Source: Gammaproteobacteria bacterium UBA2965
GTDB lineage: Bacteria; Pseudomonadota; Gammaproteobacteria; Pseudomonadales; Azotimanducaceae
Assembly (NCBI GenBank): GCA_002348385.1
Contig: DEBD01000037.1
Location: 129,467 to 193,466 of the forward strand
Direction of reading: 5' to 3'
DNA: 64,000 nucleotides
A program made the translations under genes and the position numbers. Shown here in pieces: positions 2,968-61,624 of this stretch (position 1 is the first letter of the stretch; each line of letters opens with the position of its first letter). The notes under the pieces were generated by a model. That model saw nothing but the letters and a program-made list of their open reading frames with translations, made no database searches and was not told the DNA's origin.

Positions 2968-3158
2968 AGCTCTCCCTCCATTTCGTTGTGTTGCAAAGAT
3001 AGCACCGGTGGTGGCGGGGCAAAACTTTTCTCTCCAGGGCCACCTCGTCCGCTGACATGCGCCCGTCAAGCAACGCGCCTGCCTTGAAATCGCGGAACGC
3101 ATCCAAACCCAGATATAGTGGGGTCAAACTTACAAAGCCGGGGTGCAGGACACACAAA

Positions 3159-3533
3159 ATGACACAAGACAGATTGCAGCGCGGAAAAGCCCGCATGAAG
3201 GAATTGTTTGGTGAAAGTCACCAACCGCCAGAGGAACTCCAAGGTGATTTCATTGATATCACGGTGGGACACCTGCTCGGCGATATCTGGACGAGACCCG
3301 GTCTCGAACTGCGCGAGCGTTCCATGATTACGTGTACTGCTCTGATCGTGCTCGGCAACCAATCTGAGCTGAAAGCGCATCTAGCCGCGGCGTTGAATGT
3401 CGGGATTACGCGCCAAGCAATCGAAGAGATGATGATTCACCTGGCGCACTACTCGGGCTGGCCCACCGCCGTAAACGGGCTGCGCATCGCACGTGAACTA
3501 TTCGCGGAACTCGACGCCAAGCCGTCGGCATAG
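3159..3533 (+). CDS. Carboxymuconolactone decarboxylase (CMD) family protein
   Basis: CMD-domain core ERSMITCTALIVLGNQSELKAHL...IEEMMIHLAHYSGWP. Start trimmed to ATG 3159. Confidence 0.85.
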   Translation: MTQDRLQRGKARMKELFGESHQPPEELQGDFIDITVGHLLGDIWTRPGLELRERSMITCTALIVLGNQSELKAHLAAALNVGITRQAIEEMMIHLAHYSGWPTAVNGLRIARELFAELDAKPSA

Positions 3534-5150: not shown

Positions 5151-5252
5151 AGGCAGCCGAACGCTCCAACAAGGGAACGACCGCTAGGCGCTGCCTGGTG
5201 TGGGAACCACGGTAGTGTCCATCTCCTCCGGTTCGAGTCCCAGACAGATGAG
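5151..5252. repeat. Copy B of the diverged direct repeat (copy A at 3561-3657)
   Basis: Covers the last 22 or so codons plus about 30 nt of 3' flank of the CMD-like gene 5184-5699. Confidence 0.7.
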
Positions 5253-5699
5253 CACTTTGGACATGCCGAGGAAAAGCCCCACGCCCAACGCCATCTCGAC
5301 GATTTCCGCATCGCTGAAGTGCGACTTCAGCGCCTGCCTGGATCCGTGGTCCAGGCTGCCGGGCAGCCCGATAATGGCATCGGCCAGTTTGAGGACCGCG
5401 ACTTCCCGATCTGGCAGCACCGACTCGTAACCATCGGCGATGAGGTCAACCTTCTCTTCTCCCAGCCCCGCCACACGGGCGGAGTCAAAACGCACGTTTT
5501 TTCAGTAGCCGCAGTCGGTGATGCGGGCGTTGCGCATTCGGGTCATCTCTTTGAGCTCGTCGGCGACCACACCGCGCTGCCAGAACTCCGCATACAGCTC
5601 GAAGAACCGGCCGGTGGAGGCTGGTGTGTGCATCATCACCGTAGCGAACTGAGCGGGTTGATCGGGGACGGCGGAAGAGATTCTCGGTTTGGTTGACAT
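5184..5699 (-). CDS. CMD/AhpD-like protein with an in-frame TGA (5504-5502) inside its redox motif. Candidate selenoprotein (C-G-Y-U), otherwise a nonsense pseudogene.
   Basis: Track ORFs 5502-5741 and 5184-5495 are in the same frame, separated only by TGA AAA AAC. ATG 5699 lies 6 nt after GGAG. Joined product reads ...RMRNARITDCGY[TGA]KNVRFDSARVAGLGEEKV... Confidence 0.6.
5466..5484 (-). promoter_or_regulatory. Candidate bacterial SECIS-like hairpin 17 nt downstream of the TGA at 5504-5502
   Basis: Minus-strand RNA CUCCGCC-CGUGU-GGCGGGG: a 7-bp stem (one G-U pair) and a 5-nt loop containing GU. A weaker hairpin AAAAC-GUGC-GUUUU (5500-5487) precedes it. Confidence 0.4.
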
Positions 5700-5724
5700 G
5701 TTGAGCTCCGATTCCGTTTCTATT

Positions 5725-6222
5725 TCACGCCAAAGCGCCATTGCTCAGCGGCGGCGCATCCAGCACGCCGGGTTCGGCGGGCAGATCCAGCACCAACCGC
5801 AAGCGGCACGTGACGTCGAAGAAAGCAAGCGCGGTGAGCAACGACACACAGGCAGGTTCCCCAAAAGCCGCCGTCGCCACCTCCACCTGGGCGTCGGTAA
5901 CCTGATGGTGGCCGTAGGGTATTTGTTCGGCGAGCGCCAGCGCGGCTCGTTCCGGGCCGGTAAAACCTTCCACCTCGCCGGCTCGCAGGCGTTCCTGCTC
6001 GTCAGCATCGAGATTCACTTCCGCATCGCGCAGCAACCATTCTGATTCGCAATCATGAATGGCCGCAACTCGCAGTCGGCACAGCTCCAGCACGCGCCGG
6101 GGCACCAGGCCGTCCGCCCAGAAAGAGCCATAGAAGGCCCGGTAGCGCGCGAGCAGTTCCGGCCGGTGGGCCAGTGCAGCTTCCAGCGCGGTGGGTGCTT
6201 GGGTGGCGTCAATCCAGCTCAT
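5725..6222 (-). CDS. Carboxymuconolactone decarboxylase (CMD) family protein
   Basis: CMD core LELCRLRVAAIHDCESEWLL aligns with the TDCGY[TGA] segment of the downstream paralogue. Start trimmed to ATG 6222. Confidence 0.8.
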   Translation of the reverse strand: MSWIDATQAPTALEAALAHRPELLARYRAFYGSFWADGLVPRRVLELCRLRVAAIHDCESEWLLRDAEVNLDADEQERLRAGEVEGFTGPERAALALAEQIPYGHHQVTDAQVEVATAAFGEPACVSLLTALAFFDVTCRLRLVLDLPAEPGVLDAPPLSNGALA

Positions 6223-13101: not shown

Positions 13102-13797
13102 ATGTCAGCCACAACCAAGTACCAATTAACAAGCGCCTATACGTGACCGTGGGTGCAGCGCGCCGTGATCGTAATGCGCGCCAAAGACGTCGATTTTGAA
13201 GTGACCTACATCAATCTGCGCGACAAGCCGGGTTGGTTCCTGAAGATCTCCCCCCACGGCAAGGTGCCCGTGCTCCAGGTCGATGGCGAGCCCCTGTTCG
13301 AGTCCAACGCTATCGCCGAGTACCTAGATGAGGCGGTGGAACCGCGGCTCCATCCGGTAGACCCGGTCAAACGCGCGCGCAACCGGGCCTGGACTGACTT
13401 TGTGCCCACATTCGCGGGCGCTCTGATGGGCCTGTACTACGGCCGAACGAAAGAAAACGCCGAAGACCGCACCAAGGCTGCGCGCCAGAGGCTCAATCGC
13501 CTCGAGGAAGCCATCGCCAACGAGCGGGGTAACGATGGGCCCTATTTCAACGGCCCGCAGCTTTGCCTGGTAGACGCGGCCTACGCTCCGTTTCTGCAGC
13601 GCTTTCTGATCGTGGAGCAGTGGCTGCAAAGCGGCGTGCTCGACGACTATCCGCTGGTGAATGCCTGGGCCCATGCCCTAGTGGAAAGCGACGTCGTGAC
13701 GGGCTCTGTACCCGACAACTTCATGGAGGAGTTTGAAGGCAACATCCGCAGCATGGCGCCAGAAATCGCGGCGCGGATGGACCGCAAAAGCGCCTAA
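13102..13797 (+). CDS. Glutathione S-transferase with an in-frame TGA (13144-13146) at the catalytic-Cys position. Candidate selenoprotein (U-P-W-V). The segment 13153-13797 is certain.
   Basis: GGAGGA (13091-13096) then ATG 13102. The frame reads MSATTKYQLTSAYT[TGA]PWVQRAVIVMRAKDVDFEVTYINLRDKPGWFLKISPHGKVPVLQ. Confidence 0.65.
13158..13181 (+). promoter_or_regulatory. Candidate bacterial SECIS-like hairpin 11 nt downstream of the TGA at 13144
   Basis: GCGCGC-cgugaucguaau-GCGCGC: a 6-bp all-GC stem and a 12-nt loop containing GU. Confidence 0.4.
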
Positions 13798-17289: not shown

Positions 17290-18717
17290 ATGGCCAAGAT
17301 CGAGCGCGACCTGCTGGAGTGGCCCGAGCGCACCGAGAGGTCGTTTCCAACACCCGCGTTTATTCCGCGGGTGGGCAACGTTGACCTCGGCCTAGATCGG
17401 CTAGACGGCGAGCGCTACTACTCGCCAGAGTTCATGCAGGCCGAGTGGGACAAGGTGTGGACGAAAACCTGGCAGCTGGCGGCGCGCGTCGACGAGTTCT
17501 CCGAACCCGGCGCTTTCTACGTGCACGAACTCGGAAAGGAGTCGTTCCTCTTCGTCAGAGGCGACGACGACGAGATTCGCGGCTTCTACAATTTGTGCCA
17601 GCACAGGGGCAACGTGCTGTGCCAGGCCGATACCGGGGTGCTCGACACCTTTACTTGCCCTTTCCACGGCTGGCAGTGGAACAACGATGGAACACTCAAA
17701 CGCGCGGCAGGAGCCGAACTGTTCCGCCAGTTCGACAACGGCATTCCCACCGAAGAGCTTGGCTTGCCGGCGGTGAAAGTGGACACCTGGGGCGGCTGGT
17801 TGTGGTTCAACATGGACCTGGAAGCAATTCCGGTAAAGGACTACCTTGGAGAAGCGGGTCGACAGCTCGAAGTGTACGGGTTTGAGGGCTGGCACCTGAT
17901 CAACTACCAGACGTTCGAGTGGAACGGCAACTGGAAGCACGCGTGGGATGCGTTCAACGAGAGCTATCACTTCGCGGAACTGCACCCGGACATGATTGAA
18001 TTCGGCGAAGGGCACGACATTCCAATCGAACTGCTCGGCATCCACTCAAGGATGCTCAACTTCAATCGTACGGTGAGCCAGGTTGTCGAAGATCGGGACA
18101 CCATGACGGACCTGCGCGCACACATGATGCTCAGAGCTCAAGAAGGCTGGCGGGACAAAGAGACCGCTTCTTTCAGCGGCAAGGCAAAAGACGTGCACCT
18201 CGAGGAAATTCGCCACCGTCGCTCCATCGAAGAAGACACCTACCTGCCTTACAAGCAGATGAATGACGAGCAATTGGTGCACCAGTACCACTACAGCTTC
18301 TTTCCCGGTGCCACGATGACACAGACCCCGGAAGGGGGCGCAGTCTTTCGCTACCGACCGCACGCTACCGACCCGAACATTTGCTACTACGACTTCTTCA
18401 TCCTGGCCCACCTTCCGCCCGGCATACCAAAGATAGAAAGGCCCCCACACCGCGTGCATCGTCACGTGGATGGCATCGACTATGCCGCGGCATTCGGAAA
18501 CACCTTCGACCCGATCCTGGCCAACGTGCTGCGACAGGACGGCTCCAACATGACTACCATGCAGGCAGGCGTTAAGTCGGATGCCTTCAAGGGTATGATC
18601 CTTTGCGATCAGGAGCTGCGGATCCGGCACTTTCACATGATGATCGACGAGTTCATCGCCGGCAGCATAACCACCGACAGCCTGCCGCCCGGTGATGCAT
18701 ATCTGCTAAAGGACTGA
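17290..18717 (+). CDS. Rieske [2Fe-2S] oxygenase, alpha subunit
   Basis: CQHRG...CPFHGWQW. Paralogous to 55763-57115. Confidence 0.9.
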   Translation: MAKIERDLLEWPERTERSFPTPAFIPRVGNVDLGLDRLDGERYYSPEFMQAEWDKVWTKTWQLAARVDEFSEPGAFYVHELGKESFLFVRGDDDEIRGFYNLCQHRGNVLCQADTGVLDTFTCPFHGWQWNNDGTLKRAAGAELFRQFDNGIPTEELGLPAVKVDTWGGWLWFNMDLEAIPVKDYLGEAGRQLEVYGFEGWHLINYQTFEWNGNWKHAWDAFNESYHFAELHPDMIEFGEGHDIPIELLGIHSRMLNFNRTVSQVVEDRDTMTDLRAHMMLRAQEGWRDKETASFSGKAKDVHLEEIRHRRSIEEDTYLPYKQMNDEQLVHQYHYSFFPGATMTQTPEGGAVFRYRPHATDPNICYYDFFILAHLPPGIPKIERPPHRVHRHVDGIDYAAAFGNTFDPILANVLRQDGSNMTTMQAGVKSDAFKGMILCDQELRIRHFHMMIDEFIAGSITTDSLPPGDAYLLKD

Positions 18718-29552: not shown

Positions 29553-29640
29553 TCTAGGAACTGGCACATGTTCCACTAACACCGTGCAAGCAACGCGCAT
29601 ATCATCTTCACGTTGCGTCCCGAACCCGGAGGAAGGAAGC

Positions 29641-30915
29641 ATGCAGCAGGAACAGATAGATACGTTACGCAAACTCATGGAGTACGAGGCGGGCCGCACC
29701 ACGCCCCCCGAAGGGTTTCCGGCGCTACCCGATATTCCCGGAGGGCGCTATACGGATGCGCGCTTTTTCGAGCTGGAAAAAGAGCACATCTGGCGAAAAT
29801 CCTGGCTGCTGGCATCCCACATAGACGAGGTGCCCGAGCCCGGCTGCTTCCGGTTGTGGGAAAACGCCGGACAACCGGTGGTCATCGTTCACGCCGACAG
29901 CGGCGCCATCAACGCTTTCTACAATACCTGCAGCCACCGGGGCGCGCCGGTAATCACCGAAGCGTCAGGACAGCGCCCGAGGCTCACCTGCAAGTACCAC
30001 GGCTGGAGCTACACCCACGATGGTGAGCTGGTCGCCATCCGCGATCCGGAGGATTTTCGCGATCTGGATTTTTCCTGCCGCGGCCTGCGACCGGTGCGCT
30101 GCGAGCGCTTCGGCAATCTCATTTTCGTCAACTTCGACGATGACGCACCCTCCCTGATGGAGTGGCTCGGCCCCATCGCAGACGAATGGAAGGAGTTTCA
30201 GTTCGAGAACTGCCGCCTGGCCGCACGCCACATTTTTGATCTCGACTGCAACTGGAAGGTGGCCATGGAGGCCAATACCGAGGTCTACCACGTTCGCAGC
30301 ATTCATCCCAAGACCGTTTACCCAATGCTCGACGATCGACGCAACATCAACACCCTCTACCCCAATGGGCACGGCCGCATGGTCGCGCCAGCACAGAAAG
30401 GCGCCGAGGCTATGCGAGCCGGACGCATGGGCGAGTACCCCGAGGTGGAAACCGTGGGGGAAATCGGTCGCACCTGCACCCAGTCTTACGGAATCTTTCC
30501 CAATTGGGTGTCACCGCTGAGCCATCGTGCCATCCCGCCGCTGATTTTCTGGCCCAACGGCATCAACAAGTGCCGGCTGGAAACCTGGACCATGGCACCG
30601 GATTGGGGCGACCTGCCGGCACCGGACTCCTGGACCGTGAATCAGGGAGAGAGCCTGAATGCGGTGCTGTTGGAAGACACCGAGTTTGGCGGGTGGATCC
30701 AGAAATCCATGCAGTCATACGGCTTCCAGGGCGTGCCGCTGAGCTATCAGGAGGCGCGCATCTACCACTGGAATCAGTCCGCCGACAAGATGATCGGCAT
30801 CGACAACATTCCCCCGGAACTGCGGGTCGCACAGGTGATCGGAGACGAATGGGTATACCCCAACGACCCGCGCATCGAGCTGGCGGAAAAGGAGCTCGCG
30901 CAGTCCGCAGGCTGA
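29641..30915 (+). CDS. Rieske [2Fe-2S] oxygenase, alpha subunit
   Basis: CSHRG...CKYHGWSY. ATG 29641 follows GGAGGAAGGAAGC. Confidence 0.9.
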   Translation: MQQEQIDTLRKLMEYEAGRTTPPEGFPALPDIPGGRYTDARFFELEKEHIWRKSWLLASHIDEVPEPGCFRLWENAGQPVVIVHADSGAINAFYNTCSHRGAPVITEASGQRPRLTCKYHGWSYTHDGELVAIRDPEDFRDLDFSCRGLRPVRCERFGNLIFVNFDDDAPSLMEWLGPIADEWKEFQFENCRLAARHIFDLDCNWKVAMEANTEVYHVRSIHPKTVYPMLDDRRNINTLYPNGHGRMVAPAQKGAEAMRAGRMGEYPEVETVGEIGRTCTQSYGIFPNWVSPLSHRAIPPLIFWPNGINKCRLETWTMAPDWGDLPAPDSWTVNQGESLNAVLLEDTEFGGWIQKSMQSYGFQGVPLSYQEARIYHWNQSADKMIGIDNIPPELRVAQVIGDEWVYPNDPRIELAEKELAQSAG

Positions 30916-55762: not shown

Positions 55763-57115
55763 TTACTTCCTACCCGGCGGGTTTCCATTCAGGTAGTCGT
55801 GAAGCACTTCATGGAAGCGTCGTACACGAGTTTCCTGGTTGGCAAGATAAGGCTCCTGGTAGCCACGAGAACGCCAACCGGTAGTCTGCCCTGCATTAAG
55901 CTGCCAGTCCTGGAAGACGACCTGGTCGTCTAAGTCCTGCACACCGTTGCCGTTGTCGTACTCGCGGTAGTCGTACTCAGCCTCTTCGAACTTCAGCCCA
56001 TAACGGGCCGTGCGGTGGACATAGGATTCGACACCTTCCACCGGATAAGCCATAGACCACTCGTCAAAGAAGCATTTCTCTGGATCTGTGGGATGGGGCT
56101 CCCACCGAAACACACCAAAGCCATCCGCAGATGCCCCAAACGCGATGTTGGGGAAGATGGTGGTAAAAGGGCTTTCCGTGAGCTCCTCGTCAGTTAGGTT
56201 CTCGTAATGGAGATGGCCCTTCTCTTTCCAGAGTTTTCGTTTGGCCGCCTTCAGATCCAGCCATCCTTGGATGGCCTTGGTCTCGTAGTCAGGATATTCA
56301 TTCGGATCGATACCCCAATATTCGAGCTCCCGATCCCACGGGTGAGGCTCGCCTTCCGGCACCCGATCGCGAACCGATGGGCGGCCCATCTGCACGATTC
56401 GATTGTTGCCCATGGGATACATCTCGTAGTACGAGGAAAAGTGATCCTGGTCGATGATGGGCGGCACCTGAGGGTGCGCGGTGCGAGTATGGTACGACTC
56501 ATTGAAGTTGTCGGACCAGAACTTCCAATTGCACTCCAGCGCCACCCGAATCCACCGGGCTCGCACGGTTTTTTCAAACTGGTGGTTTTTGTAGATCTCT
56601 GGCCAAGGCTCTAAATACTTGTACAAGTCTGGGGCCTCATCATCCATGGTGTACCACACCAGGCCTGCCCAGGTATCCACGCGCACTTCCACGAGGCGTA
56701 TCTTGCCCACCGGATCTTCCGGGTAGTCATCTCGGTCGCATGCATCGAGCAGCGAACCATCCATGTCCCACTTCCAGCCGTGGTACGGACAGAACAGGCT
56801 CTCCTGCGAGCCATACTGTCCCCACACCAATCGTTGTGCCCGGTGGCCGCAGGCGTTGTAAAAACCTTTGAGGGAACCATCTTTCTGCTTTGCGATAATT
56901 ACCGACTCATGCATGAAATCATGCACGATGTAGTCGCCGGGCTCCTGCAGCTGCTGCTCACGCCCTGCAATGTGCCAGATCTTGGTCCACAGCTGGTCCC
57001 ATTCCTTCTCCATCCACTCCTTGCTGTAGTAGCGCTCGGGAGTGATCGGATCACCGCGCAGATTAGTGCGGTCTTTACCGTCCATGGCCAATGGATGCTT
57101 GAGCGCGTCGTTCAT
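55763..57115 (-). CDS. Rieske [2Fe-2S] oxygenase, alpha subunit
   Basis: CGHRA...CPYHGWKW. Confidence 0.9.
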   Translation of the reverse strand: MNDALKHPLAMDGKDRTNLRGDPITPERYYSKEWMEKEWDQLWTKIWHIAGREQQLQEPGDYIVHDFMHESVIIAKQKDGSLKGFYNACGHRAQRLVWGQYGSQESLFCPYHGWKWDMDGSLLDACDRDDYPEDPVGKIRLVEVRVDTWAGLVWYTMDDEAPDLYKYLEPWPEIYKNHQFEKTVRARWIRVALECNWKFWSDNFNESYHTRTAHPQVPPIIDQDHFSSYYEMYPMGNNRIVQMGRPSVRDRVPEGEPHPWDRELEYWGIDPNEYPDYETKAIQGWLDLKAAKRKLWKEKGHLHYENLTDEELTESPFTTIFPNIAFGASADGFGVFRWEPHPTDPEKCFFDEWSMAYPVEGVESYVHRTARYGLKFEEAEYDYREYDNGNGVQDLDDQVVFQDWQLNAGQTTGWRSRGYQEPYLANQETRVRRFHEVLHDYLNGNPPGRK

Positions 57116-60046: not shown

Positions 60047-61624
60047 ATGGCTACGTCGCAGAAAGCCCTGCGCACCATCGACGACCCGTTCCACGCGCTG
60101 CTTGAGGCCGACACCCACGCCAGCAATATCACCTCGGCCATGCACGTCGACAATCCCATCGAGCCGGGTCCCGCACTCATCGACAAGAACCGCTACATCT
60201 CGCGCGAATACCACGAGCTAGAGAAGAAGCACCTGTGGTCACGCGTGTGGCAGCAGGCTGCACACGAAGACGACTTTCCCAATGTGGGTGATGTGGTGCC
60301 CTACGACATTGTCGACCAATCATACCTAGTGGTTCGTATTGGGGAGGACGAGTACAAGGCCTATCACAATGCTTGCCTGCACCGTGGGCGCAAGCTCCGT
60401 GAATCCCGCGCCAAGGGACTCGATGAATTGCGCTGCGCGTTCCACGGCTGGGCATGGGAATTGGACGGCAGCCTCAAGCAGGTGCCTTGTGCATACGACT
60501 ACACGGACTTGGATCGGGAGGCGGAAAGCCTGCCGGAAGTAAACATCGGCCGTTGGGGCCGTTACATCTTCATCAACCCGGATCCGAACTGCGAGCCGCT
60601 GGAAGAATATCTGGGCGACCTGTCCGGCGAGTTCGAGGTTTTTCCCTATGAACGCCGCTACAAGCGCGCCCACGTATCCAAAGTGATTCGCGCCAACTGG
60701 AAGGTGGTCCAGGAAGCATTCATGGAATCGTACCATGTGCTACTCACACATCCCCAGGGTCTTAGCGGCGGGGCCAACGACATGTGCACGAAATATGACG
60801 TGTTCGGTAACTACTCGCGCGCGATACGCACGGGCGCACTGGACGGTGCGGGCGTTCCGGAGTGGGAAGAGCTGCCTGACACCGGAAACGCCGTGCTCCG
60901 CCATCCGCTCAACGGCATGGTCTACGAAGACGCGGGCAACGAAACCGTCCGGGTCACCACACCCAAGGGATTGAGCGGCCTGTTCACAGCCAAGGGCAAA
61001 TATATCGAAGGCGAGCTCAAGGACGCCAATCAACATCTGTGCATTCTCGTGGGCGGCCGCAAGGTGGCAGGCGTCTCGCTTACCCAAGGTGCCATGGCAA
61101 GAGTGCCCGAAAACGAAGCAGCGCGAATGATGGAGAAGCTGGGCAACAACGCCTCCCCGCGAGCTTTAGCGGCAGAGTCCATGCGGCAAGGTCTAGCCGA
61201 AGTAATACCTTCGGTCGCCGACACGATTCCAGACGTTGAGCTAACGTCATCCATATATCTCACTGTGTTCCCCAACTTCCACCCCTGGGGCTCATTCAAC
61301 GAGATCAACTACCGCTTCCGGCCCAACGGCGACAACCACGAAGAATGCATCATGGAAGTAATGATGATGGCCCCCATGCCCGACGACGGAAACTTTGAGC
61401 CCACGCGGGAGATCCGCTACCTGGACATAGACGACGATTTTGTCGAGGCGGAAGCCGAGCTGGGTGGATTGGGCCCTGTGTTCAATCAGGACACGCTCAA
61501 TATGCCATTCGTACATCAGGGCATGAAGGCGAGCGCAAGGACTCACACACGGCTTGCGGAATATAACGAAACCAAGCTGCGCCACTTCCACGGTCTCTAC
61601 GACAAATGGGTAGACCTGAAGTAA
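60047..61624 (+). CDS. Rieske [2Fe-2S] oxygenase, alpha subunit
   Basis: CLHRG...CAFHGWAW. Shares FPNFHPWG..INYRFRPNG with 685-2043. Confidence 0.9.
   Translation: MATSQKALRTIDDPFHALLEADTHASNITSAMHVDNPIEPGPALIDKNRYISREYHELEKKHLWSRVWQQAAHEDDFPNVGDVVPYDIVDQSYLVVRIGEDEYKAYHNACLHRGRKLRESRAKGLDELRCAFHGWAWELDGSLKQVPCAYDYTDLDREAESLPEVNIGRWGRYIFINPDPNCEPLEEYLGDLSGEFEVFPYERRYKRAHVSKVIRANWKVVQEAFMESYHVLLTHPQGLSGGANDMCTKYDVFGNYSRAIRTGALDGAGVPEWEELPDTGNAVLRHPLNGMVYEDAGNETVRVTTPKGLSGLFTAKGKYIEGELKDANQHLCILVGGRKVAGVSLTQGAMARVPENEAARMMEKLGNNASPRALAAESMRQGLAEVIPSVADTIPDVELTSSIYLTVFPNFHPWGSFNEINYRFRPNGDNHEECIMEVMMMAPMPDDGNFEPTREIRYLDIDDDFVEAEAELGGLGPVFNQDTLNMPFVHQGMKASARTHTRLAEYNETKLRHFHGLYDKWVDLK

Follow-up and report, generated by a model that had tools for sequence, protein, structure and literature searches.

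The locus described here lies on contig DEBD01000037.1 of assembly GCA_002348385.1 (Gammaproteobacteria bacterium UBA2965), of which positions 129,467 to 193,466 of the forward strand were analyzed. This whole stretch of 64,000 nucleotides (nt) is referred to as the window, and positions are counted from its first letter. On the minus strand of the window, two open reading frames (ORFs), 5502-5741 and 5184-5495, share one frame and are separated by a TGA codon (5504-5502) and the codons AAA and AAC, after which the second ORF begins with GTG 5495. Joined across the TGA, they encode a protein related to AhpD and the CMD family, with the residues C-G-Y-[TGA]-K-N-V-R-F around the TGA. In our judgment it is very probable that positions 5699-5184 form a single gene for a 171-residue AhpD-like protein, in which the in-frame TGA encodes selenocysteine (Sec) with the help of a functional bacterial Sec insertion sequence (bSECIS). 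The features of the locus are listed in Table 1.

Table 1. Coordinates of the features discussed in the text, numbered within the window
Feature	Position	Strand	Description and basis
Predicted coding sequence of the AhpD-like selenoprotein	5184..5699	-	171 residues; ATG 5699-5697, putative Sec codon 66, stop codon TAG 5186-5184
In-frame TGA, read as a Sec codon	5502..5504	-	Residue 66 in the motif C63-G-Y-U66; cysteine (Cys) in homologues, TGA in related loci
Shine-Dalgarno-like GGAG	5706..5709	-	6 nt 5' of ATG 5699; read from the sequence
Candidate bSECIS core hairpin	5466..5484	-	CUCCGCC-CGUGU-GGCGGGG; stem of 7 base pairs (bp) 5484-5478/5472-5466, apical loop CGUGU 5477-5473
Small hairpin	5487..5500	-	AAAAC-GUGC-GUUUU; proposed by the first-pass annotation, comparative support absent
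CMD/AhpD-like paralogue	5725..6222	-	165 residues, no CxxC; 25 nt upstream of the predicted selenoprotein gene, same strand
GST-like gene	13102..13797	+	In-frame TGA 13144-13146 at codon 15, T-U-P-W; ORF calls and homologues

Gene structure and conservation of the in-frame TGA

Translation of 5699-5184 on the minus strand contains a single internal stop and reads ...MRNARITDCGY[TGA]KNVRFDSARVAGLGEEK... In the alignment, the N termini of the homologues share a conserved MST.PR. That the homologues begin in this way confirms ATG 5699, and not the upstream ATG 5741, as the start codon. The coordinates, the shared frame, the start at ATG 5699 with its GGAG and the joined product of 171 residues had all been given in the first-pass annotation of this DNA, and they agree with the sequence.

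A homologue search over 5.8 billion proteins returned two classes of match. The first consists of full-length proteins of 154-194 residues at 43-57% identity; those of 171-194 residues align with the product over its whole length. The second comprises dozens of proteins of 101-114 residues with 60-96% identity, all of which start with MRFDSAR, corresponding to the GTG just past the TGA. Cys occupies the TGA column in each of the 26 full-length Cys-form homologues that were aligned, with the pattern C-G-[FY]-C-[KR]-x-V-R-F, and the codon is TGC in five Cys-form loci. This alignment supports the earlier reading of the motif as C-x-x-U: all full-length homologues have the second Cys of their CxxC in the TGA column. 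One protein record (P0003; locus L112, contig of ENA ERZ976280) has W at this column. Its DNA carries TGA, followed by a hairpin with 7/7 pairs, and the W is present because the depositor chose that translation table.

Public records of the family are inconsistent. Besides the single W translation, most gene callers give a "hypothetical protein" of 101-114 residues and a separate ORF of 65-79 residues. The records concerned are P0003 and the database clusters P0001 and P0026-P0120.

At the nucleotide level, 99 of the 101 related loci have TGA in this position and keep the N-terminal half in frame, a proportion that overstates the share of Sec forms because the metagenome loci were found with the Sec-clade alignment (A2) and the search pattern favors TGA forms. 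Of the loci from GTDB species genomes, 19/21 carry TGA at this codon, together with in-frame conservation of the upstream half; among the usable metagenome loci the count is 79/79. The TGA-bearing taxa belong to three phyla and include Gammaproteobacteria of the Pseudomonadales (OM182, K189A), one metagenome-assembled genome of the Dehalococcoidia and several Acidimicrobiia. For the 34 codons 5' of the TGA, comparison with the window sequence gave a median nonsynonymous divergence (dN) of 0.16 and a median synonymous divergence (dS) of 1.14. The resulting dN/dS of ~0.14 indicates purifying selection on the gene's N-terminal part. Thirteen independent contigs carry the exact 103-residue ORF; they derive from marine metagenomes, with TARA among the sources, and reach 208 kb in length.

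The hairpin downstream of the TGA

In the consensus bSECIS model, an apical loop of 3-9 nt that carries a G within its first two positions, usually with G or U as the next base, sits on a stem of 4-16 bp, the distance from the UGA to the loop is 16-37 nt and the minimum free energy is ≤ -7.5 kcal/mol (PMC13188914, Fig. 2). The hairpin at 5484-5466 agrees with this model in every respect: its 5-nt loop has G at position 2 followed by U, its stem has 7 bp, the loop begins 24 nt past the UGA and the energy in context is -12.2 kcal/mol. The energy is ≤ -7.5 kcal/mol in 65/75 orthologues.

Covariation was analyzed on 75 distinct orthologous 48-mers. The stem positions pair in 89.7% of cells, 71 cells are changed on both sides, and 0/500 shuffles reached the observed values. 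Pair 27-33 is C-G in 41 sequences, U-A in 33 and something else in 1; pair 24-36 is C-G in 33 and U-A in 27, with A-U, G-C and U-G variants in addition. The covarying sites are synonymous third codon positions. Shared GC content at third codon positions was considered as a source of the C-G/U-A covariation and was rejected on two grounds. When the 3' partners were slid by 3 columns, which keeps the codon position, pairing fell to 47-58%, and the mutual information of each third-position column in the 5' arm was highest with its predicted partner (0.99, 0.64, and 0.43 bit).

The loop itself is also constrained. Its Arg codon is CGU in 73/75 sequences, compared with an about even spread over six codons for the other invariant Arg, five codons upstream. 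The five Cys-form genes have 2-4/7 in-register pairs and no CGUGN loop. In two divergent loci that keep the TGA, L018 (Ilumatobacteraceae) and L020 (Gammaproteobacteria UBA11873), hairpins of unrelated sequence occur at the same offset of 20-40 nt; that of L020 is AUCCAUC-GGU-GAUGGAU. What these distant members conserve is thus the structure and not the sequence.

For the small hairpin at 5500-5487, 70.7% of cells pair, and the column pair 8-15 is unpaired in 57/75 sequences. This pattern indicates that it is probably not functional. The first-pass annotation had put forward both hairpins, the larger one with its loop 24 nt past the UGA, and had suggested the energy evaluation as a check. Both sets of positions are correct and the evaluation came out as described above; only the hairpin at 5484-5466 fits the bSECIS model and covaries, whereas the small one is unconserved.

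Fold, active site and neighboring genes

For profile searches with Pfam and NCBIfam, the TGA was written as Cys. The match to Pfam CMD (PF02627) was marginal, with 24.3 bits against a cut-off of 23 (E 3.2e-5); many homologues hold a precomputed assignment to PF02627. The JGI name for homologues is "alkylhydroperoxidase family enzyme," which we take to be the name of COG2128. No NCBIfam model reached its cut-off for the family: TIGR01926 ("peroxidase-related enzyme") scored 32.4 bits, below the curated cut-off of 81.8, and NF053654, NF041238 and TIGR04169 scored far below theirs.

By sequence, the closest solved structures are those of PA0269 of P. aeruginosa (2ijc, 2o4d, 7xw1; E ~3e-11) and Atu0492 (2gmy). 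The structure was assessed on an AlphaFold2 model of a 56%-identical Cys homologue (P0002), not of the Sec protein itself, with a predicted local distance difference test (pLDDT) value of 92 and a predicted template modeling score (pTM) of 0.87. The best PDB matches of this model in Foldseek were 2gmy, 2ijc, 3c1l, 6k40 and 2prr (E 4e-6 to 1e-4, template modeling (TM) scores of 0.6-0.8), and the proteins among the best fold matches are Atu0492, PA0269, Mlr4105 and the AhpD of D. radiodurans. The Pfam match, the sequence matches to PA0269 and this model place the protein in the CMD/AhpD superfamily, and the model gives it an all-helical AhpD-like fold.

In PA0269 a proton relay is formed by Glu36, Cys48, Tyr50, Cys51 and His55 (PMC3141380). 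These residues align with Glu51, Cys63, Tyr65, the TGA at codon 66 and Arg70 of the protein described here. Since Cys51 corresponds to codon 66, the TGA therefore lies at the exact second Cys of the catalytic CxxC, in line with the alignment to Cys homologues that had been suggested as a check on the C-x-x-U motif. The His of the relay (His55 in PA0269, His137 in M. tuberculosis AhpD) is reported to be essential and not to vary across the AhpD-like family (PMC3141380). This catalytic His is absent here; its place is taken by Arg70 of the V-R-F motif (codon 5492-5490, minus strand), which is invariant in all aligned Sec and Cys forms.

Upstream of the predicted selenoprotein gene lies a paralogue, which is probably co-transcribed with it. 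The two proteins match in BLASTP with an E value of 6e-9, the ...IHDC of the paralogue being aligned with ...ITDC. Against Pfam CMD the paralogue scored 22.2 bits, just under the cut-off of 23. Most of the related loci have such a paralogue directly 5' of the Sec or Cys gene, and the two form a conserved cassette; this holds for the majority of gammaproteobacterial loci, for the Dehalococcoidia locus (L009) and for three Cys-form loci (L015, L108 and L110). The first-pass annotation took the first Cys to be conserved in the paralogue, which is true only of close relatives, in which the Cys of IH[DG]C is retained; distant paralogues read IHGQQ or IHGL and have no Cys. The paralogue may be a hetero-oligomer partner of the selenoprotein. 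No ahpC or peroxiredoxin neighbor was found among the Pfam-scanned ORFs of the window.

A third CMD-family gene (3057-3533, plus strand; PF02627 E 6e-18) lies ~1.7 kb from the Sec gene, and the part of it that aligns contains no CxxC. The start chosen by gene callers is an internal ATG, which gives 124 residues. The window as a whole is a dense catabolic and redox region of an uncultured marine gammaproteobacterium, with a GC content of 60.6%. It holds five genes for alpha subunits of Rieske ring-hydroxylating oxygenases (685-2043, 17290-18717, 29584-30915, 55763-57115 and 60047-61624), two cytochromes P450, several oxidoreductases or monooxygenases of the short-chain dehydrogenase/reductase, aldo-keto reductase and luciferase-like types, acyl-CoA dehydrogenases, hydratases and a thiolase. 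A sulfotransferase, a penicillin amidase, a TonB-dependent receptor and an RND pump are encoded as well.

In a scan of the window for further selenoprotein candidates with an N-terminal TGA, only a gene similar to glutathione S-transferase (GST) was plausible. Around its TGA it reads MSATTKYQLTSAYT[TGA]PWVQRAV... Full-length homologues have T-C-P-W at the TGA column, and many homologues are shortened to 207-218 residues. A stem of GCGCGC/GCGCGC with an energy of -10.1 kcal/mol begins 11 nt past the TGA; its 12-nt loop exceeds the 3-9 nt of the bSECIS model. On the basis of the paired Cys and TGA, the GST-like gene is supported as a second candidate selenoprotein gene in the window. Because two independent genes with this pairing lie within 8 kb, the host very likely decodes Sec. 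A genome-wide reassignment of UGA was also considered and is excluded, as UGA ends 16/45 Pfam-supported genes of the window.

Proposed selenocysteine insertion, alternative explanations and known systems

In the mechanism that we propose, the UGA at codon 66 would be recoded to Sec. With the ribosome at the UGA, the hairpin located 20-38 nt downstream (7-bp stem, CGUGU) would be bound by SelB carrying GTP and Sec-tRNA(Sec), and this complex would bring about insertion of Sec in place of termination, by analogy with the known bacterial pathway. The product would carry a C63-G-Y-U66 redox center on the helix that holds the CxxC in AhpD-like proteins, with Sec in the place of the second Cys and with Glu51 and Tyr65 matching two further residues of the proton relay. 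In M. tuberculosis AhpD, the second Cys is reportedly the attacking nucleophile. Cycling between the selenol/thiol and the selenenylsulfide state could then reduce a peroxide, a peroxiredoxin partner or another oxidized small molecule. The selenoprotein would probably be made together with the upstream paralogue that lacks the CxxC.

Several results weigh against Sec decoding or redox function of this kind. ARAGORN, run on the 64-kb window and on 60 related loci, detected nothing but tRNA-Val, in three loci, and no tRNA-Sec, Pfam searches of ~48 window ORFs yielded no selA, selB or selD, and no sel genes were present in the 4.8 kb seen beyond the window start. A scan of the window at the Rfam gathering thresholds returned nothing, with no matching family, which says little, as no Rfam model for such an element was expected. 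The folding energy of a 71-nt segment was no better than that of shuffled sequence (z = +0.96), a comparison that is uninformative for a 19-nt hairpin within GC-rich coding sequence. We consider the hairpin at 5484-5466 supported because of its covariation, not because of its folding energy. The search bias behind the count of TGA-bearing loci belongs here too. Finally, peroxidase-type chemistry is not assured, because the relay His is replaced by an invariant Arg.

That no Sec machinery was found in the window and the 60 related loci would also suit a selenium-free readthrough of the UGA, either by near-cognate insertion of Trp or Cys or through a recoding signal unrelated to SelB, with the Sec machinery possibly lost in the lineage. 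The public record in which the homologous TGA is translated as W (P0003) points the same way, but this W reflects the choice of translation table, and the underlying DNA has the TGA and the fully paired hairpin. UGA serves as a terminator elsewhere in the window, in the 16/45 genes mentioned above. Furthermore, the downstream element fits the model for a SelB-type bSECIS including the G-U of the loop (PMC13188914), the site is a redox Cys position, the classic place for replacement by Sec, and the GST-like gene provides a second case of Cys/TGA pairing in the window. Readthrough of this kind appears highly improbable to us.

An explanation by two separate products, a 65-residue peptide ending at the UGA and a 103-residue part started at GTG 5495, would account for the dozens of database "proteins" of 101-109 residues that start with MRFDSAR, since a GTG is conserved 6 nt past the TGA. 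However, this GTG is the Val codon of the invariant V-R-F, a motif that the unsplit Cys forms share, and it is preceded by the bases UGAAAAAAC, which contain no purine-rich ribosome-binding site. Were the product split at this point, the break would fall inside the catalytic helix, with one redox residue on either side, and the covarying hairpin and the fixed CGU codon of the loop would be left unexplained. We therefore rate two products as extremely improbable. A pseudogene, in which a nonsense mutation interrupts a former Cys-type AhpD-like gene, or a sequencing or assembly error at the TGA would agree with the split by gene callers and in the NCBI annotation into "hypothetical proteins" of 65 and 103 residues, but 99 loci, which come from three phyla and were sampled independently, share this TGA and keep both halves in frame, the 103-residue ORF recurs on its 13 independent contigs and, because the 34 codons before the TGA are under purifying selection (dN/dS ~0.14), a pseudogene is rejected and the probability of either is practically negligible.

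Insertion of Sec at codon 66 of a single gene thus remains our preferred reading. The value of the result lies mainly in annotation: dozens of database clusters start with "MRFDSAR," no NCBIfam model captures the family, and the alignment together with the covarying SECIS element could be the basis of a model for correcting hundreds of records. Taken with the GST-like gene, the predicted selenoprotein makes it likely that this marine gammaproteobacterium, which is uncultured, uses selenium. The change from His to Arg and the conserved paralogue raise small questions on the role of AhpD-like selenoproteins, and the current understanding of Sec decoding is unchanged by these results.

Among known elements, the SECIS of E. 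coli fdhF is comparable in that its hairpin lies within the coding sequence just 3' of the UGA and has G-U in a small apical loop. The G-U of the fdhF loop is said to lie at +23/+24 from the U of the UGA. Here the loop G-U is found at +29/+30, without an evident conserved bulged U.

Of the characterized proteins, PA0269, a weak hydroperoxidase, comes closest by sequence among those with solved structures and is one of the closest by fold; Glu36, Cys48, Tyr50 and Cys51 of its relay are aligned as given above. It differs in having Cys instead of Sec and His55 instead of Arg70, and the protein described here has ~45 extra N-terminal residues. M. tuberculosis AhpD (1gu9) shares the CxxC redox center on a conserved two-helix motif and the concept of a proton relay (PMC3141380). 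It is a remote fold match (Foldseek E ~1.3), is a trimer and has a different topology with a C-terminal motif. The debrominase Bmp8 (6ohi, 6ohj) likewise has an AhpD-like fold and comes from marine bacteria (Foldseek E 3e-4, with a sequence identity of only 19-20%); it uses a catalytic Cys on a halogenated pyrrole. No evidence for a halogenated substrate was found for the protein described here. The Bmp8 match is a pointer that the AhpD-like fold is not restricted to peroxide chemistry.

Because the curated NCBIfam cut-offs were not reached and the His is changed to Arg, the gene could belong to a separate subfamily. In a wider form of this idea, which we consider unlikely, a distinct subfamily would use its selenol to act on a small organic substrate, much as Bmp8 employs a thiol, and would not serve to reduce peroxide or AhpC. 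The idea draws on the invariant Arg in place of His, the failure to pass any curated (seleno)protein model, the degenerate paralogue without CxxC that nearly always precedes the gene, and the neighboring genes for catabolism of aromatic compounds and xenobiotics.

Selenoproteins of closely similar description have been reported from marine metagenomes. In the Sargasso Sea data, an AhpD-like protein with a CxxU motif was described as a new selenoprotein family with 27 sequences, next to a CxxU "CMD domain-containing protein" and a GST selenoprotein (PMC1088965). In the Global Ocean Sampling (GOS) survey, "AhpD-like 1" (COG2128, CxxU) had 299 genes and ranked fourth in abundance among the families, while 70 genes belonged to "AhpD-like 2" (pfam02627, CxxU) (PMC2398784). 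AhpD-like (TIGR01926), CMD-like (PF02627) and GST-like (PF13409) selenoproteins are included in a 2026 review, with functions largely uncharacterized (PMC13188914). The AhpD-like CxxU family of the Sargasso and GOS data and the gene described here have in common the CMD/AhpD superfamily, a Sec in the second position of the CxxU (predicted in the present case), a bSECIS directly downstream and an origin in marine bacteria. The score of 32.4 bits to TIGR01926 (cut-off 81.8) may set the present protein apart as a subfamily of the same kind, and the likeness is drawn from the published descriptions and not from the exemplars AACY01418594 and MCB9421940.1. Marine metagenomes have been known to contain selenoproteins of this kind since 2005, and the gene described here is a routinely mis-annotated member of it, not a new kind.

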